DNA of 64,000 nucleotides from Spirochaetaceae bacterium (GTDB lineage: Bacteria > Spirochaetota > Spirochaetia > DSM-2461). The notes below the pieces were generated by a model. It did no database searches. It was not told the DNA's origin and saw nothing but the letters and a program-made list of their open reading frames with translations. Location: assembly GCA_965224705.1 (NCBI GenBank), contig OZ245056.1, positions 128,001-192,000 on the forward strand. Direction: 5' to 3'. Each line of letters begins with the position of its first letter. Positions within the stretch are counted from its first letter, which is position 1. A program made the translations under genes and the position numbers. Shown here in pieces: positions 11,456 to 28,530 of this stretch.

Positions 11456-12118
11456 TTAGATTTGGCCACTGGTTAGCGCCAGTAATTTGGAACGAAAATA
11501 GTTAAAGCTTGGAGAGGCATTTTGCTCCACATTCATGTGGGGGGCAATTTTTTCAGCCCATTCTGACTTTTCTTTTCCGACCGTTTGCCAACCTTTGTTG
11601 GAAAGCTTGGATGAGCCGCCAGAGTATACTGCATCGGCAAGCTTTTCCCAGGTACCGCAGATAGAATCGTTATCGTATGAATTCAAAGCGGAGTCTTTTG
11701 CCTTCGGATAAGCAGTCTTAAGGGCTGGAATATCACCGAGAAACCACGCCTCACCTTCTTCAATGGCGATACAAAAACGAGTTTCCGGTTTGGGATTGCA
11801 TTGATTCAAAATATCGAGTAGTTCTTCGCGAAAGGCTTTGAGGCATTTATCGTCAAGATCACAAACAAGAATGACCGCAGCCGGGGAGTCGGCTGGATAC
11901 TTGGCGAAAGTGTTGCCATAGCCGCTCAGAAGGCGTGGAAGCCGATCAAGCAGGATACGCCTGCTGGGATCGCCGCTTGCGACGAGGTTTCCCGGAATGC
12001 GGCCTATTCCTTTATATGGATGAACTTTGAACGTGTGGTTAGCACCGATGATTTTTGGAACAAGAATATCCAGGGCCTTTTTGCCGGATTGATCTTCAGC
12101 GAGGATTTCAAAATGCAT
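11456..12118 (-). CDS. DUF4276-like / TOPRIM-like protein
   Basis: EILAEDQS (TOPRIM-like E), CDLDD (DxD), IEEGEAWFLGD, C-terminal NASPSF. Coupled to the upstream ATPase. Confidence 0.7.
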   Translation of the reverse strand: MHFEILAEDQSGKKALDILVPKIIGANHTFKVHPYKGIGRIPGNLVASGDPSRRILLDRLPRLLSGYGNTFAKYPADSPAAVILVCDLDDKCLKAFREELLDILNQCNPKPETRFCIAIEEGEAWFLGDIPALKTAYPKAKDSALNSYDNDSICGTWEKLADAVYSGGSSKLSNKGWQTVGKEKSEWAEKIAPHMNVEQNASPSFNYFRSKLLALTSGQI

Positions 12119-12123
12119 ACAAA

Positions 12124-13416
12124 CTACCTTGCATCAAGATAATCACTGTACCAAAGACCGCCCAGGGGCAATCCTTCGGCCACCATATTTTTAACCAGTT
12201 CATCATCACTGGCTCTGCGTATTTTTGAGAATCCATCTTCGCCTTTTTCTAAAACCCATACCTCTTTGGGTTCAAGTGCGTCGACAAAGTAGGGCTGGTG
12301 GGTAGTGATGAATACTTGTGACCCTCCTTTTCGACCGGTAGCGTGTTCACGAAATTCTGTTGCCAGGGACTCAAGCAGTTTATGATACAAACCGTTTTCC
12401 GGTTCTTCGATACACAGAAACGGCGGTGGCGTCGGATCCTCCAACAATAGAAGATAGGCGAAAACTTTCAAGGTTCCGTCAGACATCTGCTGCGAATAAA
12501 AGGGGTCCTGGAAGCCTTTGTCATTGAATCGAAGCAGCAGCCGGCCATCGTTCGTTTTTTCGGTGTCTATTTTTTCCACACCGGGAATTTTCTCTGCAAT
12601 TCGTTTTAATATTGATTGAAAACGTTTGGGTTGTTCTCGTTCCATAAATTGAACAACATTTCCCAGATTGTCTCCGTGAATGTTGAGATGTTTTTGCGGA
12701 CCGGCAAGGGGGAGACTGCGCGCAGCATCCGGTGTAAAATAACTGAGATACCAACCTTCAATGAACTTTCGAAATGCTGAGATACGCGGGTGTTGTTTGA
12801 GTGAACCCAAAGTTGCGATGCCAAGTTTACGATAATCGTCTAGCTCAATCACCTCAGTTTCTCTGGATTCTTCCTGAGCTTTTCCAGATTTGATGGATTC
12901 CATTAAGCCAACCAGATCAAAGTTGTCTGCTGCTTCATCTATTTCTAAGCCTTCTTGTTCTCCCTTCCAAACAACGCCTTTCCCCTCGTTCAATATGAGA
13001 AAAGAAAAGGGTCTGCCGTGTTTTTGTCCTTTTCTTCGCTGTCGAAAGCGCTCCTTAAAGACATACGGTCGGTCCCTCTTATCAACTTTTATCGAAAGTT
13101 CATAGGTAATTGGGCGGGATTTATTGTCTTCCTTGTAATAAATTTGAAATTCAATGGGGCCGGTTTTTCCCTTGGAAATTAGCTTCGCAAAGCCGCCTCG
13201 TCCTCGGGCCTCACAAGCCTCTTCAACGCCCAGTTTTAAGCAATCAGCCAGAAAACCGAAGGCGTCGAACAGGGTGCTTTTTCCAACGCCGTTTTTTCCG
13301 ATAACCGCGGTCATGGGTGTAATGGGTTCTGTTTTCTGCAAATTCCACAGACGGCCAAGTTTAACATCTTTTAATGATTGGAAATTTTTGATTCGGAATC
13401 CTTCTATTTTAGCCAT
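12124..13416 (-). CDS. ABC/AAA_21-type ATPase
   Basis: Walker A GKNGVGKS, signature MSDGT, Walker B CIEEPENGLY, H-loop ITTHQP. Confidence 0.88.
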   Translation of the reverse strand: MAKIEGFRIKNFQSLKDVKLGRLWNLQKTEPITPMTAVIGKNGVGKSTLFDAFGFLADCLKLGVEEACEARGRGGFAKLISKGKTGPIEFQIYYKEDNKSRPITYELSIKVDKRDRPYVFKERFRQRRKGQKHGRPFSFLILNEGKGVVWKGEQEGLEIDEAADNFDLVGLMESIKSGKAQEESRETEVIELDDYRKLGIATLGSLKQHPRISAFRKFIEGWYLSYFTPDAARSLPLAGPQKHLNIHGDNLGNVVQFMEREQPKRFQSILKRIAEKIPGVEKIDTEKTNDGRLLLRFNDKGFQDPFYSQQMSDGTLKVFAYLLLLEDPTPPPFLCIEEPENGLYHKLLESLATEFREHATGRKGGSQVFITTHQPYFVDALEPKEVWVLEKGEDGFSKIRRASDDELVKNMVAEGLPLGGLWYSDYLDAR

Positions 13417-13561: not shown

Positions 13562-13840
13562 TTACTGTTTTTTTGTTGGAGTCGTCGGCTTCGCTGTTTG
13601 GTGGTCTTGTGGAAGTCTACTTGCGTAATCATTCACAATTAAACCTCCAATTATACTAACCCCCAAAGTTACAATGATACCCCAAAGTATTTTCCTAAAA
13701 CGACGCATCAATTTAAAGGGCAAAATATCAAGGGTGCAGTTGTTTGGGTGCGTAAATTTTTCGAACAAGAAGCGTAGTTGTTCTTCCAGGTACTCAGCGG
13801 TGGTTTGTTGGACGAGTGTATCTTCGGTGTAATCGTTCAT
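13562..13840 (-). pseudogene. HsdR N-terminal stub fused to a short hydrophobic segment
   Basis: First ~20 aa nearly identical to the HsdR N-terminus, then unrelated sequence with a TM-like ILWGIIVTLGVSIIGGLIV. Confidence 0.6.
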
Positions 13841-15600
13841 TTGTCCGGCCTCTCAAATCTCAATCCAAGCAAACTGCCAGAAGGCGTTGCATCAGAAAGT
13901 TTAAGCCGAACATAATCTCCGAATTTGAAGTCATCTGAAAAGTCAGATGATGGAATCATATCAGAATTAATTGTACAAATATACTGACCGCCGAGTGTTG
14001 TTGATATTTCATGTGCTCGCTCAAATGCAAGCGCACGCTGGCGAGCATCAACAGAGTCGTACATCAGAGTATCGTGAATAAGAAAATCGATACCTGAGCG
14101 ACTCTCCATTTGTAGTTGAAGTACCGCGAGGTCAAAGCAGAAAATTTTCATCTTCTCAATTCCCTCACTGCCACTTCGTTCAATATCTACTTTATATTTA
14201 TAACCAGTCTCTCCTACATCAATCACGAGTTTTCCTGGAGATTTATATAAAGCTTGCGAATGTTCGTTGAAAAGCCCGACAGCTTTCGACCATATTTCCC
14301 GCCTCTGTTCGTGATCGATTTCCGCTGTTCTTACAAGCTCAACTTTAGCAACCTTTACATCTCTTTTCGTAGTTTTAAGATTCTTCATCTCACGCAACCG
14401 CGCTTGAATTCTTTCTAACGAACCTTGTAAAACCAAATGCCGTTCTTGGAGCTTTGTCATTTCTTGAAGAGCACCGTGGGTTTTTAGGATTTGCATCACC
14501 TCGGCGCGCTCGTCAGTAAGTTCATTTATTCTCAACTTTCGGTCGCTGATCGCTTTTTGTATTCTTGAGATTTCAGTAGATAAGAAATCTCGACGGTTAG
14601 TGATTATCGCCTTATGAAACGTTCTAGCTTCTTCCATCGTTCGTTTGACAGCATCAGGGAATACCAATCCGGATTCCTGGTATAACTTATCAAGAGACAT
14701 TGTACCGGGTGGTTTTTCATCAGCGATGGATTCTTCATACCGTGACAGACGACGGCGATCAGAAACATTGAGGTTGGCTAACGAATGTATTTCTTTAGTA
14801 AGTTTATCAGCATCCTTTTGGATGGATTCGTACTGTGGATGGACCTTGAATGAATCCAAAGCGATCTTTGCGGCTGAGGTTTGCTGTTCCAGTTGAATTC
14901 GCTGCGTTTCCAACTCTCCTACTGTTCCGACAGCTCTTTCCATTGCACCGGTCTTAATCGCTTTTTCGATGGCTTTGACGCCTTCTTCCTGGTCTTTTAG
15001 TCCTTGCCATATTAAAGCGTTTTCCCAATTCATACCAAGGAGATATGCGGTGTGTAGCTGGATATCCCAGGTTATTTGATGGCGAAAATGACGGAATGGA
15101 CTCGTGTATGCATCAGGTCCTCTTCGAATGAAGTATGAAACCAAGCTTCTAAAACTTGGTTTATAAGCGTGCTGATCTGCGGACCGAGGCAGTCCAAAAA
15201 GAGTCCGACCAAGCAATTCTCGCCATCGTTCTATCTTGAAAACATGCTCACCGGTTTTCTCATCAACGTCGGGTTGTTCCGGCCAATTAGCTGTGTTTCC
15301 TTCTATGACGATACGACTGTGCTCTTCCACCGATCTGGTGACCTTTACGCGAGAACGGTTGATGGTGATGTCAACCGTGAAAGACCAATTGCTCAGCGGT
15401 TCAATAATCAGGCCGGATCCTTTTCTCGCACGACTTCCAAGGCAAAAATCTATGATTTCCAGCAATGTTGATTTACCGAGACCATTACGAGTATCTTTTT
15501 CGGAAGAGCTTTCAGTGCGATCCGCAAGAATAACATTGAGCCCACTGGAAAATTGTACAGTATGGAAAGAAGATTGGTTCGCTGTGACGCTGTGGATCAT
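13837..15600 (-). CDS. lmuB: Lamassu / ABC-three-component SMC-like ATPase (DUF2326)
   Basis: Walker A RNGLGKST, long coiled coil, SGSEG signature, FLIHDT...DSVDARQ, YICTINSD. Confidence 0.85.
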   Translation of the reverse strand: MIHSVTANQSSFHTVQFSSGLNVILADRTESSSEKDTRNGLGKSTLLEIIDFCLGSRARKGSGLIIEPLSNWSFTVDITINRSRVKVTRSVEEHSRIVIEGNTANWPEQPDVDEKTGEHVFKIERWRELLGRTLFGLPRSADQHAYKPSFRSLVSYFIRRGPDAYTSPFRHFRHQITWDIQLHTAYLLGMNWENALIWQGLKDQEEGVKAIEKAIKTGAMERAVGTVGELETQRIQLEQQTSAAKIALDSFKVHPQYESIQKDADKLTKEIHSLANLNVSDRRRLSRYEESIADEKPPGTMSLDKLYQESGLVFPDAVKRTMEEARTFHKAIITNRRDFLSTEISRIQKAISDRKLRINELTDERAEVMQILKTHGALQEMTKLQERHLVLQGSLERIQARLREMKNLKTTKRDVKVAKVELVRTAEIDHEQRREIWSKAVGLFNEHSQALYKSPGKLVIDVGETGYKYKVDIERSGSEGIEKMKIFCFDLAVLQLQMESRSGIDFLIHDTLMYDSVDARQRALAFERAHEISTTLGGQYICTINSDMIPSSDFSDDFKFGDYVRLKLSDATPSGSLLGLRFERPDK

Positions 15601-15824
15601 ACCTCCCCCCTATTGATCAAACCATTCTTTAGATTTACGACACCGGTGATGTAGAGGAGGTCGAGCGCCAAAACGAATCTCTCATACGTCCCCACAGCGT
15701 GGTTTTCCCGAACTTTTTCCCATAGGCTTGTAATCGTTTGCGATTTTTCGAGGTGCGTCAATAGCACGCCACCGATGCCCAGCAATGCTTGTTCTTCCGA
15801 GATGTGTTTGGATGGTAGAATCAT
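15597..15824 (-). CDS. lmuC: Lamassu / ABC-three-component middle component
   Basis: 75 aa, MILPSKHI...LLGIG...FVLALDLLY, wHTH-like. Overlaps both neighbours by 4 nt. Confidence 0.8.
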   Translation of the reverse strand: MILPSKHISEEQALLGIGGVLLTHLEKSQTITSLWEKVRENHAVGTYERFVLALDLLYITGVVNLKNGLINRGEV

Positions 15825-16594
15825 TTTTCAAACACCTCGCAAGCCTCGAAGAGGTGTATCAGCACAGCCAGCCCGGCAGAACGTTGCGCTTGTCGCTGAA
15901 ACCCTTGTTGCGCAAATCGACACATTAATTCGAAAAGCTCACCACCTTTGCCGCCATTTTTTTTTATACGCCAATATTCAGAAAGAAATCCTGCTTTGAG
16001 TCTCTCAGGAAAATCCTGGTCAGTTTGTGCAACGCTTTCGATGTACCTTGCTACTTCATTGGCAACCCCAAGCCCCATGGCAATAACACCTCGCGCATCG
16101 GCATTGAGGTCGTTTTTCTGAATTTTGTCTTCGACTTTCAGTAGCGAGTAATCGTTTGTAACCGCAGACGGCAGAATTGTAGAAGCCCATTGAGTAGCCT
16201 CCTGTAGTTCTGCGAAACTGACATCTGCGAAAGCGTCAATCATTGCCTGGCGGACTTTTGTCTCATGTTCGGTCTTGATCAGATGCAATCTAGAAACTGG
16301 ATAATCGTCTTCACCTTGGGGGATTGCATCGATCACCGTATGGCAGGCTGGGCATAGGTATATAAGATTGTTGTAGTGATTACGCTCATCATCTGTCATA
16401 TTGGAATCGTAACGTGCCGACCTCTGTTTTTTCCCCTTGCCGTCATGTTCCCCAGCGATGTGAGCAGCCTCACCAATGTTTGTAGGATTTCCTGATGTGC
16501 TATCTGGCGTAAGCCGTTTTCCACAACCAGGTAACGCACAGAGATCTCCACTGCGATAGGCAAGTAACAGTTTGGTGGGATATGAAACGCTCAT
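15821..16594 (-). CDS. lmuA: Lamassu effector: HNH endonuclease + ABC-3C C-terminal domain
   Basis: CALPGC, GEAAHI, NLIYLCPACHTVID (HNH). C-terminal KIQKNDL...HLFEACEVFEK typical of ABC-3C CTDs. Confidence 0.82.
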   Translation of the reverse strand: MSVSYPTKLLLAYRSGDLCALPGCGKRLTPDSTSGNPTNIGEAAHIAGEHDGKGKKQRSARYDSNMTDDERNHYNNLIYLCPACHTVIDAIPQGEDDYPVSRLHLIKTEHETKVRQAMIDAFADVSFAELQEATQWASTILPSAVTNDYSLLKVEDKIQKNDLNADARGVIAMGLGVANEVARYIESVAQTDQDFPERLKAGFLSEYWRIKKNGGKGGELFELMCRFAQQGFQRQAQRSAGLAVLIHLFEACEVFEK

Positions 16595-17765
16595 ACTGCC
16601 ACCTCACCGTTCATCAGGCGTGGGAGTAGTTTATCTCTGGCACTGACAAGATGTTCGTTGATTAGTTGCAGTTTTTCTATCTGCTCGGCGACAGTACCTG
16701 CAAAATCATCGAAATGCTTCAAAAGACTCGCGGGGGGATGAAGACATCTAATCCGGTGCACGTCGTTTCGATTCAATGTAGGTACGGCCGCTCCCCCGTT
16801 GTATTGCTCAAGGTGCATTTCAGAGAGGAGGTGAGTTGCAAACAATGGCCCTATTTTCTTAAATTTCTTGACCCATAGAGCTGTATTTAGGGGCCAGAAG
16901 TCGCAAGGTACATACATCACTGTACCGAGTGCCCCTGAGCGGCCCGTAACAACACCGGGACCCTTGACCTTGGCCACGTTGTGATATCCGTTGATACCTG
17001 TTGAAGCATAAATCGGAAATAGGCCTTCCTTGCGTTGTTTTACAGGTAGGTCGAAACCTCTCTGTAACGTGAGAAGCTCGCCCAGCGGCGGTTTACTCCA
17101 CCCTTCCGGCACACCATCTCTAATCTTCACATGCTCATGACCGGGAAACCGGAGATGAACAAACCACTCTTTGTAAAGCAGCCGAGCCGCCTGCTCCAGC
17201 AACTGAATTCGCCGTCGGTTGTTTTCAATTAGGTCATCATAGGCGGAGAGTACAGTCGCGATATCGCGTTGCTCCGAGAGTGATGGGCAAGGAACCTCAA
17301 AATTACGAAGAACTGTTAGATTGATATGAGGCACGCCAGATGAAGACACATAATTCTGAATCTTCTGGATCGCTTGATTACTTGAGAAGTAGTAGTAGAT
17401 GAATTGACGGTCAGCTTTTGAAGGATCAACAGTCATTTTCATCTGGCTTGAGATACGACATATCTATCAAACCGACTGTCTTCGGGAATTATGGAAACCT
17501 GTCCAAGTGTACCCCTCTGCGTGAAAACAAGGTCAAGTGGGGCAGCAAGATTTCCAAATAAGTCTTTCCTAACCTTCTCTTCTGAGACGAAAACGAAGTC
17601 ATCATCATCAAGATATCGTCCGCTGTTCAGGTTGCTACCGCGTATAACGGGAACACCATCGTCTAGATAATCTCGAGAGGTAAGTTTCGAACCAAAAGGA
17701 CCACCAACCAATGCGTACGGAACATCCGCTGCCAACGTTTCCAATTTGACCGTAGGCCAGCTCAT
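16591..17765 (-). pseudogene. hsdS: type I R-M specificity subunit S, frameshifted near 17450
   Basis: GGPFGS TRD1, conserved spacer LSAYDDLIENNRRRIQLLEQAARLLYKEWF, TRD2, RDKLLPRLMNG. Adding one A to TCTCAAGCCAG restores SQSQMKM. Confidence 0.88.
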
Positions 17766-19870
17766 ACCCCCAACTCCTCAAAATTCTTCTTTATCGCCGC
17801 CGCAAGATTCACCGCCTCTGCGTTGAGATCTTCAAGTTCAACATGTATTTCACGCATGGCCTCTTCAAAATCGAAATCCTCGTCTTCCTCTTCGGGTGCC
17901 ACACCCACGTAGCGTCCCGGCGTCAGTGACCAATCGTTGGCTTCAATTTCGGCTCGGCCGACCAGTTTGACAAGGCCTTCCACATCGCAGAGTTTTGCTT
18001 CGGGGAAGCGTTCGGTGAGCCAGTGGACTTGTCTCCAGAAGTAGCGAACCTGCTTTAGCTGTTCAACAGCAAGGCTTCGCGCTTCATCGGCCATTTTGCG
18101 GACTTTGGTGATCTCTTTTCCAGACCAGGAAGCGCTCTCCCGTGCAGCGCATTGGTTCACACAGGTTTCGATGAGCCTGGTTGCGATCTTGAAGAGCAGA
18201 TCCGTTTGCTTCACCAGATTTCTACTGGACTCTGCAAGGGTTGACAGTCGGTCCACGGCTTTTTTGAGTTCGCCGTTGCTGGTTTTCTGCTTTTTCCAGG
18301 CGGTCTGTTGTTTCGTTAATTCGGAATTGAAGGCTTCGACATCCATCGTGAAAGCCGGGATGGCCGTGTTGAATTCGGACCAGGCTTCCGAATGGGCACC
18401 ATCTTTACCCAGAGTCTTGATGAAGGGATTCACGGCCTTTTTCAACGATTCCAGAGAGGATGAGAAATCCGGCAGGGGCGTGGTGCGGTCAACATCCCGA
18501 GCCTGGAAGCAGCCCTTAGATTCGGCAAGCATTCGTCGACAATAGCCGCTGACTATGTCGAGGTACTTCTTCGTCTGGCCGCGATGGAGGGCGACAATCG
18601 AGAGAATATTCTGCTCCTGCTCGGGACTGAAGTCGTAGATTTTGCGCGTGACCTTTCGGTATATGTTTCGCCCATCGATCATCAAGACCTTGCCCTGATG
18701 CTGTTTTGGCTTATCCCGATTCAAAAACCACAGCTCACAGGGCACGGTACGGGTGTAAAAGAAGTTGGAACGAATGGCGATCATCACATCCACATCGCCA
18801 GACTCGATCAGCTTCTGCCGCACCTTGGCTTCATCGCGTCCGGCGCTGGAGGCCTGGGAAGACATAACAAATCCGGCGCGGCCCTTTTTGTTTAGATAGC
18901 TGTAAAAATAGCTGATCCACACATAGTTGCCGTTGGAAACCTTGTCTTTCTTGTTCACGCCGGGAAGCCCAAAGGGTAGACGCGGATCGGTTTTCACTTT
19001 GTCAGCGTCAATCTCATCGACATTGAATGGTGGATTGGCCATCACATAGTCGGCCTTGCCGACCAACTTATGGGGATCCTCATAGTAGGTGATGGCTTTT
19101 TTGATATCGCCTTCAAGGCCGTGAACCGCCAAATTCATCTTGGCCAAGCGAATCGTGGTGGCGTTCTTTTCCAAGCCCCGAAACGTGAGTTGTTCGGTTG
19201 GACTCAGTCCCTGCTCTTCCACAGTTCGGGCGCTCTGGACAAACATTCCGCCGGAGCCGCAGGCCGGGTCGAGAACAGTGCCCCGTTCGGGGTCCAAAAC
19301 ATGAGCGATAAGCGATACCAGAGAGACCGGCGTGAAGAATTCACCACCATCGTGGGCCTTTTGGTCGGCAAACTGAGTAAGAAAATACTCGTAGATACGG
19401 CCAAAGACATCTCCAGAGATTTTTTTCAGTTCATCCGGGTTGAGCGTGCGCAAAAGCTGACCAAGGACCTGATTGTCCAGTTCCTGATATTCACTCTTGG
19501 GCAGCACCCCGCGAAGGTTCTCATAATCTTTCTCAATGGATTCCATGGCGTTTATGATCGCTTTGGCGCGGTCTTTGTTGTCAGGAAGAGATACCAGCGT
19601 GTCGAATTGTGCTTTTTCTTGCAGGAAAATAGCGCCTTTCTGGGAAAAATCCTCTTTTGTCAGTGCCCTTGTTTTTCCGCTGCGTTTCGGCAGATTGGCT
19701 TCGATTCCTGTCTTTACCATCAGATATCGGCTGTAGGCATGGCGTAGAAACACAAGGCCCATGACTGGCAGAAAGTATTCATTGCTGGCATAGTTGGAGT
19801 TGGCCCGCAGGGTATCCGCTGCATTCCAGAGCCGTTTTTCGATTGCTTCAATATGTTCCAGTTGCGCCAT
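17762..19870 (-). CDS. hsdM: type I R-M N6-adenine methyltransferase subunit M
   Basis: LWNAADTLRANS, GEFFTP, DPACGSGGMF, NPPF, WSLTPGRYVG. Start moved to ATG 19870. Confidence 0.93.
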   Translation of the reverse strand: MAQLEHIEAIEKRLWNAADTLRANSNYASNEYFLPVMGLVFLRHAYSRYLMVKTGIEANLPKRSGKTRALTKEDFSQKGAIFLQEKAQFDTLVSLPDNKDRAKAIINAMESIEKDYENLRGVLPKSEYQELDNQVLGQLLRTLNPDELKKISGDVFGRIYEYFLTQFADQKAHDGGEFFTPVSLVSLIAHVLDPERGTVLDPACGSGGMFVQSARTVEEQGLSPTEQLTFRGLEKNATTIRLAKMNLAVHGLEGDIKKAITYYEDPHKLVGKADYVMANPPFNVDEIDADKVKTDPRLPFGLPGVNKKDKVSNGNYVWISYFYSYLNKKGRAGFVMSSQASSAGRDEAKVRQKLIESGDVDVMIAIRSNFFYTRTVPCELWFLNRDKPKQHQGKVLMIDGRNIYRKVTRKIYDFSPEQEQNILSIVALHRGQTKKYLDIVSGYCRRMLAESKGCFQARDVDRTTPLPDFSSSLESLKKAVNPFIKTLGKDGAHSEAWSEFNTAIPAFTMDVEAFNSELTKQQTAWKKQKTSNGELKKAVDRLSTLAESSRNLVKQTDLLFKIATRLIETCVNQCAARESASWSGKEITKVRKMADEARSLAVEQLKQVRYFWRQVHWLTERFPEAKLCDVEGLVKLVGRAEIEANDWSLTPGRYVGVAPEEEDEDFDFEEAMREIHVELEDLNAEAVNLAAAIKKNFEELGV

Positions 19871-20045
19871 TGTTATTCGTTCTCCATGCTTCCCCATCGT
19901 TCGCAGCAGTTCTTCAATCTTCTTCAACGCGAGGGGCAGCGATTTTGCTTTTCCATTTCCCCGGCGAGTGATGGTTGGAAACGTCAGCCGGGTTTAGCCG
20001 CGAGTTTTTCCTGGGTCAGGTTCGTTCTTTCTCTAAGCCGTATTT
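19871..20045 (-). pseudogene. degenerate XRE/Cro HTH regulator upstream of hsdM
   Basis: Translation across one frameshift gives LRERTNLTQEKLAAKPG/TFPTITRRGNGKAKSLPLALKKIEELL, an HTH_3 pattern. Confidence 0.65.
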
Positions 20046-20187
20046 CTCACGAATAAAGTGAAAAAAGAGGTCTCATCTCTGATAGTTATTAGTAGATATA
20101 GAATTAACCTATCAAACAAAGAACCTTTTATGAATACAGAGTGTAGCTCAAAACAATTGATCTTGCAAGATCTTGGGAAGTGGGAAA

Positions 20188-20545
20188 TGTCAACACCGGA
20201 CTAGAATTGCAGATTATCACCGAGTTATACTGCAGTCTTCGGCATGTTTTTTTAAAGTCAACGACTCCTATTTTCATTCTAACCTTCATGCAGTATGAAT
20301 CTCCCTTAAGACTAACTACATGAAAATGGTGAAGAAGTCTGTCTAAAGTAGCCGTCGCAACTGGCGCCATTTGCCATAATTTCATCCAACTTCCCGAAAA
20401 CTTTATTACTCGTTAATACTATGGAACCATGTTCATGTCAAGTGCCGATGAGCTGTGAAGAGAAGCGATCTGTCCAACATTTAGATTTTCATAACCGACC
20501 TCATCAATTAATAGTACATGTGACTTTCAAAACATTTTTCCTAAA
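20188..20545 (-). pseudogene. istB: IS21 family istB remnant with terminal TGT end
   Basis: Fragments HVLLIDEVGY, HGSIVLTSNK, ATLDRLLHH...KGDSY across broken frames. Element end TGTCAACACCGG at 20188. Confidence 0.8.
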
Positions 20546-20649: not shown

Positions 20650-21234
20650 TCAAACTTCATTCTGAGTTAATTGAGGTGATAAGTTTCTCAATCTATCTAC
20701 TTCAATATTCTTTATCATCAGCCTATAGAATCTATTGTAAATAATCTTCTTTTTTTCTATATAATCCTTTGCACTAATAGAATAATTACTATTTATAATA
20801 ATTTTTTGCTTCTCTTGAGAGTAATCTTTTGCTACTTTTGGGAATTGTTGCAACAAATTTCTAAAGCATACCAACTCTTGCCAGTCTTGAGATTTGTACT
20901 GGGTTAGATGAATATGAAAAAAATGTACTTCTTTCTTACCCTTCCAAAGGATTAGCCTGTTTGGTAGCATTTCCAACAATTCTTCTATCAAAAAATAATC
21001 ATTTTCAATCAATTTTTTCTTAATACTGATTTTTTGTGGTTCGAACGTGTATCCAATAACAATATCAATAATTGGTTTTGCGTAAATATTGGGTACTGCC
21101 GTACTACCTACATGCTGGATTAAAGCATAATCAAGCTCCAATAGCTCAAATAGTTTTGATTGTTCTTTTCCAAATTCTCCTTTCCAATAATCAAGATGAT
21201 TTTTTTCAAGTGTAACAGTCCTATCTAAACTCAT
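20650..21234 (-). CDS. GrpB family protein (nucleotidyltransferase fold)
   Basis: QHVGSTAVPNIYAKPIIDI, HIHL, FRNLL...Y...K motifs. Confidence 0.85.
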   Translation of the reverse strand: MSLDRTVTLEKNHLDYWKGEFGKEQSKLFELLELDYALIQHVGSTAVPNIYAKPIIDIVIGYTFEPQKISIKKKLIENDYFLIEELLEMLPNRLILWKGKKEVHFFHIHLTQYKSQDWQELVCFRNLLQQFPKVAKDYSQEKQKIIINSNYSISAKDYIEKKKIIYNRFYRLMIKNIEVDRLRNLSPQLTQNEV

Positions 21235-21253
21235 TTTTAACTCTCCGCAAAAA

Positions 21254-22006
21254 TTAGTGTTGCATTCTTCCTGTCAATACAACAGGTTCATCAGATTTAA
21301 GCTTGTATTTCCTGGATTCCGAGTACATAAAGTCTTTCATATGTCCAAACGGCTCAATTTTTTCTACCTGAGGATGAAAAAAATATCTGTGATATAAATT
21401 CATTTTATATTGCTCAAAAACTGGAACTGAGTAAGAAAGAAAATTTTTCCAAATAATGAATGTCGGCTCATGATGCAGTCGATATCTCAGTTTTCTATCC
21501 GCATAAAAATCATGACATACATATTTACCCAGTTTTGAAGATTGAGAAGATATTGTATTGTTAACCTGACGATAACGCTCAACCTTTATACTTTCAAAAA
21601 TATCCTGGTTATACCGGTAGTACTTTGGGAATCCTCCTCCAAACAAACAAACATCTCCCCCAAAATTCAACATCTTCAATACTATTGCTGTAAATGGATA
21701 TACAATGCTGTATTTATGTTGCAAAATAGGTAGCTCTTTTTTGCAAAATTCATCAAGAAACATGTTTCTAATTGTTAATTTCAAATTCTTGTTATGTAAA
21801 AATAATTTTAAGCTTTTTTTCTCGACAGTATCCAAATCTGGGTAATAGTCAACAAATATGCACTCAAATTCTACTCCTAGGCATAGTAAACGATAGGCTA
21901 AGAACTGACTATCGACACCTCCTGATAAGAATAGTGTTATTTTCCCATGTTTTTGAATCTCAAGGAGTTTCTGATCTACGTATTCAAGCCATGGGCAATC
22001 ATTCAT
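21254..22006 (-). CDS. PP-loop (adenine nucleotide alpha-hydrolase) domain protein
   Basis: TLFLSGGVDS PP-loop motif near the N-terminus. Remainder unassigned. Confidence 0.6.
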   Translation of the reverse strand: MNDCPWLEYVDQKLLEIQKHGKITLFLSGGVDSQFLAYRLLCLGVEFECIFVDYYPDLDTVEKKSLKLFLHNKNLKLTIRNMFLDEFCKKELPILQHKYSIVYPFTAIVLKMLNFGGDVCLFGGGFPKYYRYNQDIFESIKVERYRQVNNTISSQSSKLGKYVCHDFYADRKLRYRLHHEPTFIIWKNFLSYSVPVFEQYKMNLYHRYFFHPQVEKIEPFGHMKDFMYSESRKYKLKSDEPVVLTGRMQH

Positions 22007-24311
22007 TTCTTGTATCTAATTGCCATTCTTTTATGAGTAAATCCAGGTATTGTAAAGTACGTTTGTTCTCTGGATCATTACACTTTTCATAGATATTACG
22101 TAATTCTTTAATCCTTTTTTTAATATCCGGGATTATCTTTTTAGGGTTGGTGTGATATAAGTGTCCAAAGATATACTTATGCAAAGGATGAGTTTCTTTT
22201 TTCAAAACTTCCAGAATCTTTTTTTGCAACTCTTTGTCGAAAGCTCTATAGAATGGTTTTGGTCTTTTCGGGTTAATGGGGTCCTGTTCATCTTCATTTG
22301 TAGTGTGCTTAGGGTTGGAATCAAGCCATTTGAAATATAAAAATTTGGTTTTGGCTTGATAATCCGAATTGTAGAGTTGGATGGATGCATCATAATACAA
22401 GGTAAGAACTCTCTGATATGTTGCCATTATGGATTTCATATCCTTATTTTCATTTTCTTCTATGCGCTTGAGGTTTTCAAGAAATAGTTTTGACTTCTTC
22501 TTATTCTGTTCGTCCATTAACACATAGAAGAAACGCTCTAGGCAAAATAAAAAAGCTCTTCGGAGAGATTCAGGAACTTTTGTGTAAATATCAGAAATTG
22601 CTTTCTTCTTATTTTTTTTGGGTTCATCGCTTAATGAAAATTTCTCATGATACAAAAGTGAAGCGATAACCCATTCATAAACAGAGTCATTGAATCTATC
22701 AATAGAAATACCATCATCTGGTTTACCACTATCTGGTTGCTCATCAAGAATTGAAACATACAGAGCTAACGCTAACAGGATTTTTTGACTTTTCTTTTCT
22801 AATTTTATTCCATCAGAATAATACAATGGATATGATTTGCTCCCCTCTATATCATTTATGTAATCATAAACCTTTCTTTGGTCTTCTCTATTATTACTGA
22901 GTTCCTGCACGATATTTGGGTAAGTTTTCCATAGGGTCTTCGTCATATCCAATACTTCTTTACAGTGTGTTTTATAATCTATACGGAGTCTAATAACTTC
23001 TAACTTCTTCTTATGATTCTCCCATTTCTTTATGCATGTATCAATGCTTGTGTTCTCCGCTATTCCCGAGATTAAAATATTGCCTTTCATCATATTGGGC
23101 AAGTCTATATTGTCTGTATTAACTATCCAGTGAAGCGACTTAAGTGCATAGACGGCATAATAATTCTTCAAGGTATTCGTAAACTCATCATGATTTTTAT
23201 CAAGATTATTATTAGATAAGTTAAAACACTTATATATATTATTATTGCCTTGGCTACAAAGGTTTTTTTTATAAAACTCTAGCCTCTTCCTGAGTAGTCT
23301 ACTTGCGCTATCAAAGTCCACTATGATGACCGTTTTGTTAAGAGGAGACATTGGATTCAGAAGTGTATTGGCTACATCAAACATACTGTAAAATTCTGGT
23401 ACTCCATTATCATGATCACTGAACTCTGTACGCTTGAATTTTATCTCATCAGCATCATTTCTGTTATCATTATGGAGTTTGTATTGATATTTATTTTTAG
23501 ATTTGCAACAGTTGAAAACTATCTTGTAGAAATTCTCATATAGAACATAACCATCCTTACTCAGGTAATTCAAAGGAATTCTTTTAATTGGCAAATCCTT
23601 AAAATGCTTATTAGCTTTTGTAGGCTTCTTCATTTCTAGCGCAGTCTCTCCCAATTGATATAGATTAAAATTATCATGGTTTTCACTACGTGCTAGTTTT
23701 TTGAGAAACGTGACATGAGGCTCATATCTTGTGAGGGATGTACCTATAAACAAGCATGTTTGATTGTTTGTAGTTAATAATGGATCATGAAATTTAGCCA
23801 ATTTATCTGATATTTTTTCAGAGATTTTTTTCCTTGTATTAATCAGACTAGATGGACTTAGTATAGTTCCATGCAGATAAATCAAACTACGGATTTTGGG
23901 ATAAATAGGTCTAAAAAAATCCTGATTTTCTAAATGCTCATCATTTTCATAAGTCATTGGATAGAATGGTTTGAAACCATCCCCTTGTTCTCCAGATTGG
24001 GAACCTGCTCTGAACCTAATGGCTTGTATTAAAGTGAGTAAAGTCAAATCATGATTCGTTGTTACTATATATTTCCAGTTCAATGACAGAAAATCCAAGA
24101 CATTTTTTCCTCGCTCAAGCAGATCGGCTGTATTGCTTACATTAATAGCAGTTTTACTTAATTCTCCTGCTTCCTCTAAGTAGTTTTCCAATTCAGACCA
24201 AAGAGGAAACCCGAACATCTTCGAAAACCCAGCCCCAAGCCAAAGCACGGCCTGCCCTCCTTCGATAGATTGGATCAAAGTATTCATTCCCTCTTGTGAG
24301 ACATTTTCCAT
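21999..24311 (-). CDS. SIR2-like domain protein with long unassigned C-terminus
   Basis: WLGAGFS, IVTTNHD, YLHGT, LFIGTSL (SIR2_2-type motifs) in the first ~200 aa. Confidence 0.8.
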   Translation of the reverse strand: MENVSQEGMNTLIQSIEGGQAVLWLGAGFSKMFGFPLWSELENYLEEAGELSKTAINVSNTADLLERGKNVLDFLSLNWKYIVTTNHDLTLLTLIQAIRFRAGSQSGEQGDGFKPFYPMTYENDEHLENQDFFRPIYPKIRSLIYLHGTILSPSSLINTRKKISEKISDKLAKFHDPLLTTNNQTCLFIGTSLTRYEPHVTFLKKLARSENHDNFNLYQLGETALEMKKPTKANKHFKDLPIKRIPLNYLSKDGYVLYENFYKIVFNCCKSKNKYQYKLHNDNRNDADEIKFKRTEFSDHDNGVPEFYSMFDVANTLLNPMSPLNKTVIIVDFDSASRLLRKRLEFYKKNLCSQGNNNIYKCFNLSNNNLDKNHDEFTNTLKNYYAVYALKSLHWIVNTDNIDLPNMMKGNILISGIAENTSIDTCIKKWENHKKKLEVIRLRIDYKTHCKEVLDMTKTLWKTYPNIVQELSNNREDQRKVYDYINDIEGSKSYPLYYSDGIKLEKKSQKILLALALYVSILDEQPDSGKPDDGISIDRFNDSVYEWVIASLLYHEKFSLSDEPKKNKKKAISDIYTKVPESLRRAFLFCLERFFYVLMDEQNKKKSKLFLENLKRIEENENKDMKSIMATYQRVLTLYYDASIQLYNSDYQAKTKFLYFKWLDSNPKHTTNEDEQDPINPKRPKPFYRAFDKELQKKILEVLKKETHPLHKYIFGHLYHTNPKKIIPDIKKRIKELRNIYEKCNDPENKRTLQYLDLLIKEWQLDTRNE

Positions 24312-24316
24312 AGTAA

Positions 24317-25408
24317 CTACTCCTTTCTGATTGGCGCATTTCTCTCAAAAGCATTTTGATTGCCTTGATAACACCACTGATTACTTGAGGTCCGGGATTT
24401 ATCTATTGGAATAATTTTAATTGAGGAGACAGGATTCTGCTTATTGGTAATCCGAGGGTTTATTTCCATGTTTTTCTCATAATGGAACAGGCCGTTCAGC
24501 TGCTGGCAAAACTTTTTAATTGCCTGCTCTAGTTTATTTTCATCGATATCTTTAATTGACAGATTTGCACTTCTATTTCTTCGGCAAAAACTCAAGGTGC
24601 CGTCAGGCTGAATAAGCAATGTAAAAACACCCTCTGGGCAAGGAAATATTGGGCATTTTCGACAAAATTCTAAATAGGTCGCGGTGGTTTGTTTTGTTTT
24701 TATTTTTACTGAAATATTTTGATATTCAAAATATTTCATCGTCAAGCCCAAACCCAAGCCTTCCTCTTTAATCAAAGTGCATCCTTTTTTCAGTAACATC
24801 TGCTCAACCTCCTTGACTGTCTGATACTGATGATGGAAAAATCCTACTCCATCATACTCATGTTCTTCCAAATCACATAGCTTCAAATCACATTGATTCA
24901 CCGAGCAAAATTCAAGAATGTTCAAAACATCTTCCTGGTTATATTTCATCAATACCATAAGTATTTCTATCGAAGCTTTATTTTTTTTTAATTCAACAAT
25001 ATTTTTGACAACTTCTTCCAGTATAGAAGTACTCGTTATTGCGCTATATTTTTTTTCATCTAATGAATCCAGGCTTATCCTTAACCTGGACAATTGTGCT
25101 AACTTTTTAGGTTCTATCAGTTTTGAGCCGTTTGTATTCAACTGAATTTCTATTGATTCGGATATCAATTGCGTCATGAGGTTTAAGTATGAGTTGAATT
25201 CAGAGTGAAGTGTTGGTTCCCCTCCGGTAAATCGGAACATTTTGGCTCCCTGCTTAATCAGTGACCCTATTATTTTATCTGCCAGATTAAACGGCAACTC
25301 TCCAGATACGCCCATATGAGATTCGCCCATAGGAGGACAGTAGGCACAAAATTGGTTGCATTTTGTATTTATAACAACTGTTATCATTGCATTTATTAAA
25401 TTGGTCAT
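24317..25408 (-). CDS. radical SAM protein, MoaA-like with C-terminal Cys cluster
   Basis: CNQFCAYC, FTGGEP, NTNG, ISLDS. Auxiliary CRKC-x4-CPEG...SFCR. Confidence 0.85.
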   Translation of the reverse strand: MTNLINAMITVVINTKCNQFCAYCPPMGESHMGVSGELPFNLADKIIGSLIKQGAKMFRFTGGEPTLHSEFNSYLNLMTQLISESIEIQLNTNGSKLIEPKKLAQLSRLRISLDSLDEKKYSAITSTSILEEVVKNIVELKKNKASIEILMVLMKYNQEDVLNILEFCSVNQCDLKLCDLEEHEYDGVGFFHHQYQTVKEVEQMLLKKGCTLIKEEGLGLGLTMKYFEYQNISVKIKTKQTTATYLEFCRKCPIFPCPEGVFTLLIQPDGTLSFCRRNRSANLSIKDIDENKLEQAIKKFCQQLNGLFHYEKNMEINPRITNKQNPVSSIKIIPIDKSRTSSNQWCYQGNQNAFERNAPIRKE

Positions 25409-25410
25409 AT

Positions 25411-26421
25411 TCAAAACTCCTCTGCCAATAAATTGTCAATTTTTGGCCTTGGCAACTGGTTCATTCTGGCAGCGACAAACGAGCCATTATGTGTACCTCC
25501 ATTGTAACTTGCCACTGCTTGCTCTAATGTTGTAGTTAACGAGTCCTGAGGGATATAATTGGTACTCTCATAAACTTTTTCAGAAATGTATGAATGATTG
25601 AACAGAGTTAATTCCCAACCAATACTCATAGAAACAATTTCTTCGAATGTAATGGCTTTGCAGGTAATTCCATCGGATAATCCAAGAATTTTTGAAAATG
25701 TTTCAAAATAGTCAAAACACAAAAAACTCTGGGGACTGCAAACATTGAATACTTGTTGAATACATTTAGCATTGCCAATTACACGGCATATCACTTTAGC
25801 TAAGTCACTGATCGAAATGAAAGAACTTAAAACCTCTCCTTTCCTATATAAATATATGCTTTGACTGTTCAACAATGTTGTTGCCAACCTAACATCTCTA
25901 TTGTGCTTTGGTAAACACCCGGCCAAAGTCTTTTCTCCTAGGACATGATAGGGCCTTAAGATAGAAAAATTTGCCTTTGACTCTTCTATCCAATAGTGCT
26001 CCATTGAAATCTTTCCATCAGCATAACCTCCCAACACACCCATATTCGATGTATTTCGATTTTCATCAAAAGGAATCTTTGACTCATCTGATTTCCTATC
26101 TCGACAATATACCAATGTGGAAGACAAAAGTATATACTGTTCCGATTGGCCAAATAATAGGTGAGTAAACTTGGCATGAGCATGGTTTTTGGATATTAAG
26201 TCAATCACAGCCAATAGTTTTGGGTGGTTTTTATTGATTAAAGCGGCCTGTAAGGCATAACTCTCAGAGAATATATCTGCTTCATAGAAGATTTGGTTTT
26301 TCGCAGAGCTTGGTTTTTGCTTATCTAGTATAATGACAAAGAACCCATTGTTGACAAGTTCAACGCAAATACTCCCGCCTATAACACCACTTCCCCCAAT
26401 AACTAAAACCCTGTTATTCAT
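25411..26421 (-). CDS. NAD-dependent epimerase/dehydratase (extended/atypical SDR)
   Basis: VLVIGGSGVIG, LSSTLVY, YADGK (YxxxK), ILRP. Start moved to ATG 26421. Confidence 0.8.
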   Translation of the reverse strand: MNNRVLVIGGSGVIGGSICVELVNNGFFVIILDKQKPSSAKNQIFYEADIFSESYALQAALINKNHPKLLAVIDLISKNHAHAKFTHLLFGQSEQYILLSSTLVYCRDRKSDESKIPFDENRNTSNMGVLGGYADGKISMEHYWIEESKANFSILRPYHVLGEKTLAGCLPKHNRDVRLATTLLNSQSIYLYRKGEVLSSFISISDLAKVICRVIGNAKCIQQVFNVCSPQSFLCFDYFETFSKILGLSDGITCKAITFEEIVSMSIGWELTLFNHSYISEKVYESTNYIPQDSLTTTLEQAVASYNGGTHNGSFVAARMNQLPRPKIDNLLAEEF

Positions 26422-26516
26422 TGTTCTGAATCCGTATAAGAATAAAAAACAAAGGCTCAATCTTTTATATATAATAAATTACGCAAAAATTCAATTAACC
26501 CGGAAGGTGAGCCTTA

Positions 26517-26740
26517 TGAAGATAGATACTACCACAGAAGCTTTAACCCGTACAGGGGGAATCACACTGGCAGGAAAAATATTTAAAGAAATTGGACTGG
26601 AATTCACATCCGATACCATACTTTCGGGCGCAACAAACAAATCATAAAGACAATGACCAGACTTCCAAAGGGATGAATGGTTATTCTCCCATCTTCAGCT
26701 ATGTGGTAAGGAAGGTTATATGATGGACTGTGAACTAAAC
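26517..26740 (+). pseudogene. IS1380 family transposase remnant
   Basis: MKIDTTTEALTRTGGITLAG N-terminus, then a fragment KGMNGYSPIFSY/GKEGYMMDCEL. Internally deleted. Confidence 0.6.
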
Positions 26741-26840
26741 TTTAATGGAAAATTACAATATTTGATTAAGCACATTTTGTCTGAATGATCTTCTCGTAAT
26801 CCACTGGAGAAACCATGTCGATTATAATACACCTCAATAT

Positions 26841-28056
26841 GTGTCATGCCAACCATTAAGCAACAAATAAATACGCTTGAGTTTAATTCGAGCTTGATCT
26901 ATAGAGAATTGCCAATCGACGGTGGCGTTCTTGTTATTTCTGTGTTCTTGCCATGCCCCAGATTCAAATGAAACCTCCTCTATCTTGTCTATTCTTCTGT
27001 TAAGGCACTGTCCCATCAATACATTCAACTCTATTTCAGCCGTGTTAAGCCAGCTACCGTGTTTCGGAGTATAGACAAACTCAAATCTGTTCAGAAGACT
27101 TTTTGCTTTTTCGGGTGTGTACGCCTCGTAAAAGGCGCCGGGAACATGAGTGCCGTCATCATCCATGACCAGAATTTTCTTTCAGCCTTTTCGTACAGCG
27201 AAGCTATCTCCTCCATGAAAAACGCCCGGTCGGCTTTCGTTTTCCTTTCCGTGATCTTCACGTATCGTTTACCGGCAAGAAGTTCATTCGCCATAAAGAC
27301 ATTGCACACCCCACATCGTTCGTATTCGCAGTCATAACGGTATGGTCGTCCTTTACCCTGGGCTATCGGTATTCTGGTCTCTCCAATAAGCTGCGTGGGA
27401 GATTCGTCCATACAAACTACCAGGAACGCAGAGTTATACGGCCTTTTGTACACCCCCAGGACTTTTTCCATTGCAGCCGCAAAATCAGAATCCTGTTCCG
27501 GGGGGATCACCCAACCCTGACTTTTCCAGGGTTTGATTTCGTTTTTTTAATACTTTTCTTACAGTTTCATAGGATACGCTTTGCACGTAACCCAACTCAA
27601 CAACTCTGTCGGCCAGCAGCCTTAACGACCAACGGGTAAAGCCATGCGGCGGTTCTGAACAGCTAAGAGCGACAAGATGAGCTTCAAAATCCCCATCCGC
27701 TTTCCTGTCATACACACGTTTGCCTTTATGACCGTTCAAGGCTATCTCCATTCCCTCCTCTACAAAACGCTTTTTTACGTGGTCTATACGCCTCATGCCA
27801 ATATTCAAGATATGCGCTATTTCTTCGTTCGTGCTTTTATGCGTCTGGTAATCACCTCTGTCGCAGGAGGCAGGATCAAGGCGTTTATCAGTTTTCGCGA
27901 TCTATGGACTCCTCTGGACTTTATTCCCTGTAAATACTGACGTTCGTCTTCACTTAAGGTCACCCGGTATCTAACTTGCATTACTATTCCCTCTATATAG
28001 ATAAGATGGGGATAGTTTACTTCATTTTTTGCGTTGTTTTAAGGTTGACATGACAC
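26841..28056 (-). mobile_element. IS630 family element, degenerate transposase
   Basis: 14-bp TIRs GTGTCATGCCAACC / GGTTGACATGACAC. ORF pieces WSLRLLA, VCMDES, YTPKHGSWLNTAEIE. A-run slippery site plus two extra frameshifts. Confidence 0.85.
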
Positions 28057-28058
28057 GA

Positions 28059-28354
28059 GGACTCTAAGACTTCGAGGCAATTTCTGATGTTTTTACTGAT
28101 GCAAGGCGGCCTGTCCGCCGACAGACAGGCAAAAACGGAGTGCAACTGAGCTGCGTGAGTATTCTGGCAGCTCAGCAGCAAGATATGCGAGTCTATGGAC
28201 TCGCATCCTGAGAGAGTGCCGAGCGATAGCGAGGAAAAGCCGCCACGGATGGCGGCGAAAACGAACGAAGGCGGCTCTCCAGAAGCAAGCAGGAGGCTTG
28301 CTTCTGGAGAGAAGGGCAGAAATCGAGCCGTGAGGCGGAAGTCCGACGGGCTTC
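28059..28354. repeat. hairpin-rich MITE, copy 1 (left end truncated at IS630)
   Basis: Near-identical core to 60653-60940. Degenerate right TIR AAGTCCGACGGGCTTC. Confidence 0.85.
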
Positions 28355-28530
28355 TGGGGAAGTCGGGGTGGGACGGACAGAGGGGAAAAGGTTCGCCGGG
28401 CTCAACAACCTCAGTTCTGTCCGCTATCTCATTGGGTGAGGAGGGTGTGTGAAAACTCTGGGGGATCGACTCGGCAAATCCGGGAAGTATCCTGTGCATT
28501 TATAGAAATTTTGGCGGATTTCAGATAAAA

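Follow-up and report, generated by a model that had tools for sequence, protein, structure and literature searches.

A five-gene operon in a spirochaete places a rare MoaA-like radical SAM enzyme beside a SIR2-domain protein and may encode a variant of nucleotide-signal immunity

The 64,000-nt stretch of Spirochaetaceae DNA analysed here (assembly GCA_965224705.1, contig OZ245056.1, positions 128,001 to 192,000; hereafter the window, in whose own coordinates positions are given) carries at 20650..26421 a block of five genes, which the initial annotation had put forward as a candidate new system built from enzymes that act on nucleotides and a SIR2-domain protein. All five open reading frames (ORFs) are intact and lie on the minus strand. 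Read from the short-chain dehydrogenase/reductase (SDR) gene to the GrpB gene, they are separated by 2 nt, 5 nt, an 8-nt overlap and 19 nt (+2/+5/-8/+19), which confirms the proposed layout over this span.

25411..26421, minus strand: SDR, 336 aa (Pfam Epimerase, E 3.5e-14)
24317..25408, minus strand: radical SAM enzyme, 363 aa (Pfam Radical_SAM, E 1e-18)
21999..24311, minus strand: SIR2-domain protein, 770 aa (Pfam SIR2_2, E 4.9e-6, residues 82-195)
21254..22006, minus strand: PP-loop (HUP-fold) protein, 250 aa (weak ThiI/QueC matches)
20650..21234, minus strand: GrpB-family protein of nucleotidyltransferase fold, 194 aa (Pfam GrpB, E 8.9e-28)

The domain assignments proposed for the SDR, radical SAM, SIR2 and GrpB proteins lie above the Pfam cut-off, whereas the PP-loop call is weak and confined to the N-terminal motif. 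The block was also said to be more AT-rich than its flanks, and its GC content is indeed 0.341, compared to a genome mean of 0.471 (sd 0.031); only 7 of 3001 segments of the same size are as low, and these fall within three low-GC regions, one of which is the block itself. The two further islands lie at G000:C1:1200000-1214000 and 2962000-2971000, the latter starting beside a copy of an insertion sequence (IS) relic that is also found at window position 26425. The genome encodes no second copy of any of the five proteins, which means that the host has no detectable MoaA either. Scans for promoters and terminators stayed at chance level (30 versus 28.6 and 3 versus 4.4, respectively).

Judged by its sequence, the radical SAM enzyme is a member of a rare MoaA-like subfamily and is neither MoaA nor a viperin. 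It carries C17/C21/C24 together with the conserved auxiliary cysteines C249/C252/C257/C275, so that both the family motif CNxxCxYCPPxGE and the four-cysteine auxiliary domain are present, and its nearest solved relative is MoaA (E 4e-23). Identity with MoaA was rejected on several grounds: the enzyme scores 96.8 bits against an NCBIfam cut-off of 284, has T10, E148 and L150 where MoaA controls carry R, K and N, lacks the C-terminal GG, possesses extra cysteines, occupies a separate tree branch, and has no moaC or MOSC neighbour. In MoaA, the Arg, Lys and Asn residues serve in GTP binding. Identity with viperin was likewise rejected (TIGR04278 22.9 bits against a cut-off of 450; pVip E 8e-15 over residues 11-163 only). 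Residues R59, R110, K176, K237 and R277 do not vary among the five closest sequences, a pattern suggestive of a substrate that carries phosphate. An exact scan located the family motif at 19 loci of the genome collection and at 43 of metagenomes, but nowhere in viral contigs; 59 of these 62 loci yielded the enzyme with the ORF caller, forming 49 distinct groups, and, as members with a variant motif are missed by such a scan, these counts are lower bounds. One motif locus (L062) groups with MoaA in the tree, and six viral loci are weakly similar (27-28% over 90-140 residues).

Among the remaining enzymes, the SDR is of the extended/atypical type with an NAD(P)-dependent epimerase/reductase fold (GxxGxxG at 9, Y133/K137), and its matches are nucleoside diphosphate (NDP)-sugar enzymes. 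A homologue with a start matching that of the window SDR lies beside a related radical SAM gene in locus L009 (phmmer E 7e-36), and a fragment is found in L051 (E 3e-7), compared to 3e-5 for an ordinary epimerase in L063. The PP-loop protein has SGGVDS at position 28, and its gene overlaps the SIR2 stop by the 8 nt noted above. Its matches to ThiI (0.016), PADLOC QueC (1.4e-4) and a PHROG QueC-like family (1.6e-7) are weak and cover residues 11-78 only; sequence searches returned only the protein itself, with none in phage records or viral contigs. Its nearest ESM Atlas clusters consist of phage proteins (score 0.96-0.98), some with QueC (38%) or Asn_synthase (15%). The GrpB protein carries G43/S44 and D57, and its homologue in L009 reaches 80.5 bits, whereas none of 15 GrpB loci used as controls exceeds 57.8.

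The SIR2-domain protein retains the motifs GAGFS at 26, TTNHD at 84 (N86), YLHG at 145 (H147) and FIGTS at 188. A search with residues 1-300 returned only the protein itself, with no match in plasmids and 0 of 37 in family genomes. Its ESM Atlas neighbours are long SIR2 proteins, all with scores below 0.9 and thus leads only, as is one neighbouring cluster in which 15% of the members carry DUF4020. The single-sequence fold (pLDDT, the predicted local distance difference test score, of 34) was not used. Residues ~320-460 look to us by eye like a degenerate STAND fold, with no tool match.

The block is recent horizontally acquired foreign DNA. A DNA search of 60 relatives, with 4 candidates per genome scored, returned a single 42-bp piece, and the nearest genome (G009) matches the window at 93% from 28525 onward, with unrelated repeat-protein genes on the opposite side of that point. 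Beside this shared flank, G009 carries four tandem near-identical parallel-repeat lipoprotein genes (L081:10223-19343). The five-gene order, for which recurrence had been proposed as a check, is found in full only in one near strain, represented by run X6 of a different study, but it is not a conserved unit elsewhere. Four end-overlapping X6 contigs of similar depth, which presumably derive from one strain, follow the order of the block. Differences from the window number 176 in 2236 nt for the contig with the SDR and radical SAM genes, 47 in 306 nt for the PP-loop contig and 78 in 803 for the contig with the PP-loop and GrpB genes; the 2478-nt contig is collinear through the SIR2 gene, of which 467 of 2313 nt align at at least 80%. 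The radical SAM protein P0001 differs from that of the window at 32 of 363 residues. Over short distances, therefore, the gene order is kept.

In the radical SAM tree, the window enzyme falls within a seven-row clade (support 100/100) with P0001, P0003, L009, L042, L051 and L057. A profile of this close clade matched 1 protein in 400 genomes of the phylum, which proved to be an ordinary MoaA with the C-terminal GG. The four distant members, three of which are contigs of 2.3-4.3 kb, have the following contexts:

L009: haloacid dehalogenase (HAD) protein, 528-aa unknown protein, sulfotransferase and radical SAM enzyme, with SDR and GrpB genes converging on the other strand
L051: SDR fragment, FRG protein, sulfotransferase and radical SAM enzyme
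L057: FRG protein, methyltransferase-like gene (by eye, no Pfam match) and radical SAM enzyme
L042:94-1743, the nearest distant relative: N-terminal membrane region fused to the radical SAM enzyme

The specific SDR is present in two of these four loci and the specific GrpB in one. The slot held by SIR2 in the window contains an FRG protein in L051 and L057 and a membrane region in L042, the PP-loop slot is taken by a sulfotransferase in two relatives, and the large proteins of L009, L051 and L057 have a C-terminal domain in common. Together, these contexts imply that the conserved unit is the radical SAM enzyme with the SDR and GrpB, accompanied by exchangeable large and group-transfer genes. 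FRG is described (PMC9503650) as an NAD+-acting domain of the ART superfamily in prokaryotic immunity and possibly an NADase.

A separate radical SAM clade (16 rows, support 100/100; 17 distinct loci, including three short ones) has a layout of its own, consisting of an effector gene, a nucleoside triphosphate (NTP) transferase, the radical SAM enzyme and a conserved 190-aa gene. The NTP transferase is encoded in 16 of the 17 loci, often fused to HAD or to the radical SAM enzyme, and the downstream 190-aa gene, HD-like by eye with no Pfam match, in 11. The upstream gene carries a shared 185-aa domain in 14 of the 17 (12 loci built the profile and 2 gave independent partial matches), the remaining three loci ending before this gene. 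What precedes the domain varies between CAP12-TIR (3), TIR (1), DUF4062 (4, two called by Pfam and two by full-length homology), a hydrophobic N-terminus (3, by eye) and a contig end (3). The predicted fold of the 185-aa domain (pLDDT 90.8) resembles TrmBL2, the TrmB sugar-binding domain and nucleases of the phospholipase D (PLD) family (Foldseek E 1.5e-5; structural match VIA with Z 10.6, root-mean-square deviation 3.2, 134 aligned), and no HKD motif occurs in its consensus. In archaeal-type loci (L007), genes for TrmB helix-turn-helix (HTH) proteins occupy the position of the effector gene.

The layout of this clade forms a four-gene cassette, with TIR, DUF4062 or a membrane region on the TrmB/PLD-fold domain, followed by a HAD-NTP transferase, the radical SAM enzyme and the HD-like gene, in the following loci:

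L010:8522-12886
L013:378-4688
L020:8520-12884
L035:330-3666
L039:7815-11532
L041:161-3533
L029:2-3726

This cassette is a cleaner candidate for a second-messenger system than the window operon itself. Swappable killing domains on a ligand-binding fold beside signal-making enzymes are the layout of CBASS, Pycsar and Thoeris. By eye, the strand-helix pattern of the domain shared by the close clade is like that of the TrmB/PLD-fold domain.

Taken together, the gene content suggests that the operon could be an anti-phage signalling system in which a modified nucleotide or nucleotide-sugar, made by the enzymes, controls a NAD+-depleting SIR2 effector; we put the probability of this reading at roughly 0.45. 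Under this proposal, the radical SAM enzyme would remove a hydrogen from the sugar moiety of a substrate that carries phosphate, as suggested by the invariant Arg and Lys residues and by the fact that other family members travel with a sugar-1-phosphate nucleotidyltransferase. The SDR would then reduce or epimerize the product, much as AprD3 acts after AprD4; GrpB may add a nucleotide, and the PP-loop enzyme would adenylate and tailor the molecule, a role that the sulfotransferase might fill in two relatives. The finished molecule would switch on the SIR2 protein, in which the orphan tail of 500 residues would gate the SIR2 domain, so that NAD+ is destroyed and the infected cell halts. As for polarity, the molecule may activate the effector, as in Kongming (the option we prefer), or may restrain it until a phage disturbs the pool. 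Apramycin biosynthesis offers a chemical model of how a radical SAM enzyme and an SDR could cooperate: there, the radical SAM dehydratase AprD4 is completed by the NADPH-dependent reductase AprD3 acting on a sugar (PMC5461906). This likeness is one of description, and no aminoglycoside pathway is found at the window locus. The signal model gains comparative support because immune-type domains recur beside the radical SAM subfamily. In this respect, the earlier proposal that the enzymes control the SIR2 protein is strengthened by the FRG, TIR, DUF4062 and membrane partners of the relatives, but not by the five-gene combination, which is not conserved.

Several observations weigh against this reading. 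Homologues of the SIR2 and PP-loop proteins are present in 0 of 68 loci, and no known defence genes were detected among the 13 neighbours scanned in L009. The SIR2 domain has a short small lobe, and its catalytic Asn motif falls elsewhere in one pairwise alignment. The tail of ~500 residues has no homologue in the libraries or among 1.84 billion representatives and gives no profile match to either the TrmB/PLD-fold domain or the shared domain of the close clade; nor do these two domains match each other by profile. Whether the TrmB/PLD clade is the sister of the close clade is left open by the tree, in which the approximately unbiased (AU) test merely fails to reject that fork (p 0.367), and other clades of the family have biosynthesis-like contexts with a second radical SAM enzyme, a lysyl-tRNA synthetase or an aldehyde dehydrogenase. 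Finally, SIR2 is the fastest-changing gene between the two strains, the enzyme genes being about 85-92% identical, and such divergence is easier to reconcile with direct contact with phage proteins than with recognition of an unchanging small molecule.

The signal model is thus at its weakest in the SIR2 tail, which lends most support to an explanation that we regard as unlikely yet serious, namely that the operon combines two independent layers: a stand-alone SIR2 sensor-effector of the DSR/Avs type, whose tail would recognise a phage protein, and enzymes that directly make an antiviral nucleotide analogue, as is the case for viperins and has been proposed for Ophion. The rapid divergence of SIR2 between strains would fit this arrangement. 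So would the only detectable relative of the protein: this single further match among the 1.84 billion representatives reaches E 1e-4, covers the SIR2 part alone and is itself Dsr1-like. In Ophion, too, defence depends on the radical SAM enzyme and proceeds without abortive infection (10.1101/2025.09.30.679545). However, no Dsr or Avs profile matches the SIR2 protein or its fragments, its gene lies mid-operon with junctions of 5 nt and -8 nt, and an effector-like gene stands beside the enzyme in all four distant loci of the close clade, so the pairing looks functional.

The nature of the partner domains bears on another explanation, in which the NAD+-cleaving domain is a supplier, with its ADP-ribose, an NDP-sugar, being converted by the enzymes into a toxic or antiviral molecule. 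In keeping with this scheme, each of the SIR2, FRG, TIR and DUF4062 partners comes from a family that acts on NAD+ or is TIR-like, and the SDR matches are NDP-sugar enzymes. Nevertheless, we consider it quite improbable, given that the corresponding slots of L029, L030, L039 and L042 hold non-catalytic hydrophobic N-termini, which would be unable to supply a substrate.

The surroundings of the operon were annotated as IS relics and defence genes, and contain the following features:

26425..26663, plus strand: end of an IS relic with a decayed transposase start (three further genomic copies)
26834..27808, minus strand: IS630-type transposase relic in three pieces (DDE_3 and HTH_32 matches)
20128..20385, minus strand: IS21 istB relic (Pfam IstB_IS21, E 6e-7)
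16591..19894, minus strand: type I restriction-modification (R-M) hsdM and split hsdS, adjoining the operon block
13837..16594, minus strand: HNH-CTD effector, small middle ORF and SMC ATPase, ABC-3C/Lamassu-like (PADLOC PDC-M68)
11456..13416, minus strand: HEC-01 ATPase and DUF4276 pair (PADLOC HEC-01A 2e-198, HEC-01B 6e-98)

The istB and IS630-type relics agree with the initial annotation, whereas the IS1380 label attached to the third element is presumptive and has no library match. The boundary of this relic is fixed by its three other genomic copies, which have an identical first base and unrelated flanks, and on its upstream side the SDR start codon is separated from the IS end by 3 bp. 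A good ribosome site is lacking before the SDR gene and present before the radical SAM, SIR2 and GrpB genes, and the operon has probably lost its own promoter and ribosome site to the IS end. Given this position of the IS, expression of the operon in this genome is uncertain. No RNA data set was among those listed as containing the sequence. In X6, the SDR contig aligns up to 26424 only and continues with 221 different letters in place of the IS, so this IS end is apparently absent from that strain.

The neighbourhood of defence genes is borne out by PADLOC matches to HsdM, HsdS, the Lamassu-like PDC-M68A (E 2e-87) and PDC-M68B (E 1e-217; LmuB weak), and HEC-01A/B, although the R-M locus itself is broken, with hsdR pieces at 6813-11456 around ISL3 and a split hsdS (16591-17765). 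PDC-M68 and HEC-01, located between the broken R-M parts, are intact; the small ORF within the PDC-M68 locus (15600-15821) has no library match, and a short second copy of the beginning of hsdR occupies 13562-13840. On the right flank, a repeat of ~300 bp at 28059-28360, resembling a miniature inverted-repeat transposable element, has many genomic copies at 77-93% identity; the right flank gave 136 BLAST pieces.

An IS end so close to the first start codon and a decayed R-M neighbour could also mean that the block is a natural-product or cell-surface modification cluster without an anti-phage role, possibly silenced by the IS, in which SIR2 is a regulator or passenger. Pairs of a radical SAM enzyme and a reductase occur in aminoglycoside pathways (PMC5461906), sulfotransferases, PP-loop proteins and epimerases are common tailoring enzymes, and the biosynthesis-like contexts of other radical SAM clades point the same way. 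We nonetheless hold this to be improbable: a Pfam scan of the block turned up no gene for export, scaffold building or resistance, the slot adjoining the radical SAM gene repeatedly holds immune-type domains, and all five frames are open in both strains as far as aligned, with 13 of the 22 listed PP-loop differences at third positions. The contexts of other clades, biosynthetic or regulatory in appearance, also include PEP-utiliser (phosphoenolpyruvate) domains and WD40 proteins. In L011, L014, L015, L034, L043, L045 and related loci, the radical SAM gene follows a stand-alone PEP-utiliser mobile domain, its partners being a divergent HTH-WD40 protein and a conserved 345-aa gene (in Ktedonobacteraceae) or an aldehyde dehydrogenase. 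On the Calothrix plasmid AP018278.1 (L083:3394-13475), two radical SAM genes, a lysyl-tRNA synthetase, an LD-carboxypeptidase and an SDR, divergent from a WD-repeat gene, look like an unannotated biosynthetic or conflict cluster.

Returning to the signalling reading, the closest known system is Kongming, in which a non-canonical nucleotide made by the operon's own enzymes activates NAD+ depletion by the SIR2 protein KomC (10.1101/2024.12.20.629578). Both systems unite nucleotide-modifying enzymes and a SIR2 effector in one operon, and the SIR2_2 match and motifs are present in the window protein. By analogy, the window operon would most likely work like Kongming. However, Pfam, PADLOC and NCBIfam find neither a KomA adenosine deaminase nor a HAM1-like KomB in the block, which instead has radical SAM, SDR, PP-loop and GrpB proteins and a SIR2 with an orphan tail. 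Ophion, reported to block jumbo phages (10.1101/2025.09.30.679545), likewise places a radical SAM enzyme alongside other nucleotide-acting enzymes, a PHP protein and a phosphoribosyltransferase; neither of these two is found in the block, and Ophion, as described there, lacks both SIR2 and abortive infection. It is set apart here by gene content.

Viperins are radical SAM enzymes that make antiviral chain terminators. They share the radical SAM core with the window enzyme, as the partial pVip match indicates, whereas the window enzyme has a four-cysteine auxiliary domain and travels with effector genes. With MoaA it has the same barrel and C-terminal iron-sulfur domain in common. DSR1, DSR2 and Avs5 resemble the SIR2 protein in their N-terminal SIR2 domain and long, fast-evolving tail, but that protein has 770 aa versus 1227-1275 in the profiles and sits in an operon of enzymes. 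Likeness to Thoeris, CBASS and Pycsar is family-wide and consists of a signal enzyme paired with an exchangeable effector (TIR, SIR2 or membrane) that is joined to a ligand-binding domain. In contrast to these systems, the block has no match to a TIR generator, CD-NTase, cyclase, SLOG, SAVED or STING, no TIR gene, and a ThsA match limited to residues 8-64, and the shared domain of the radical SAM family is of TrmB/PLD fold. From Qat and type IV CBASS it differs in that the QueC match spans residues 20-78, or positions 5-63 of a 190-position profile, and the partner genes are absent.

The claim that no described system has this combination agrees with our searches. PADLOC returned no matching system, and no paper with this combination was found in the literature searched, which comprised largely open papers without their supplements, where candidates may be listed; a term look-up for radical SAM drew a blank in the main text of the discovery papers PMC13092281, PMC13069673 and 10.64898/2025.12.03.692087. 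Judged from its gene content, the operon probably represents a further form of immunity by nucleotide signals, one whose chemistry would be new.

More broadly, and more tentatively, since we rate this as somewhat unlikely, the radical SAM family as a whole could comprise immune systems, rare yet widespread, with a radically modified nucleotide-sugar as a new class of second messenger, of which the window operon would be the SIR2 version. TrmB/PLD-fold or other sensors on interchangeable SIR2, FRG, TIR and membrane effectors would read this messenger, and PP-loop, sulfotransferase and methyltransferase genes may diversify the signal, allowing escape from phage inhibitors. The family is directly testable, as the four-gene member L010 occurs in a cultured isolate, Blautia schinkii DSM 10518. 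If the proposal is true, bacterial immunity would employ a radical SAM product as a signal, a chemistry new to the field; the concept of non-cyclic messengers known from Kongming would be extended, and a role would emerge for GrpB proteins and for catalytically blank TrmB/PLD-fold domains.

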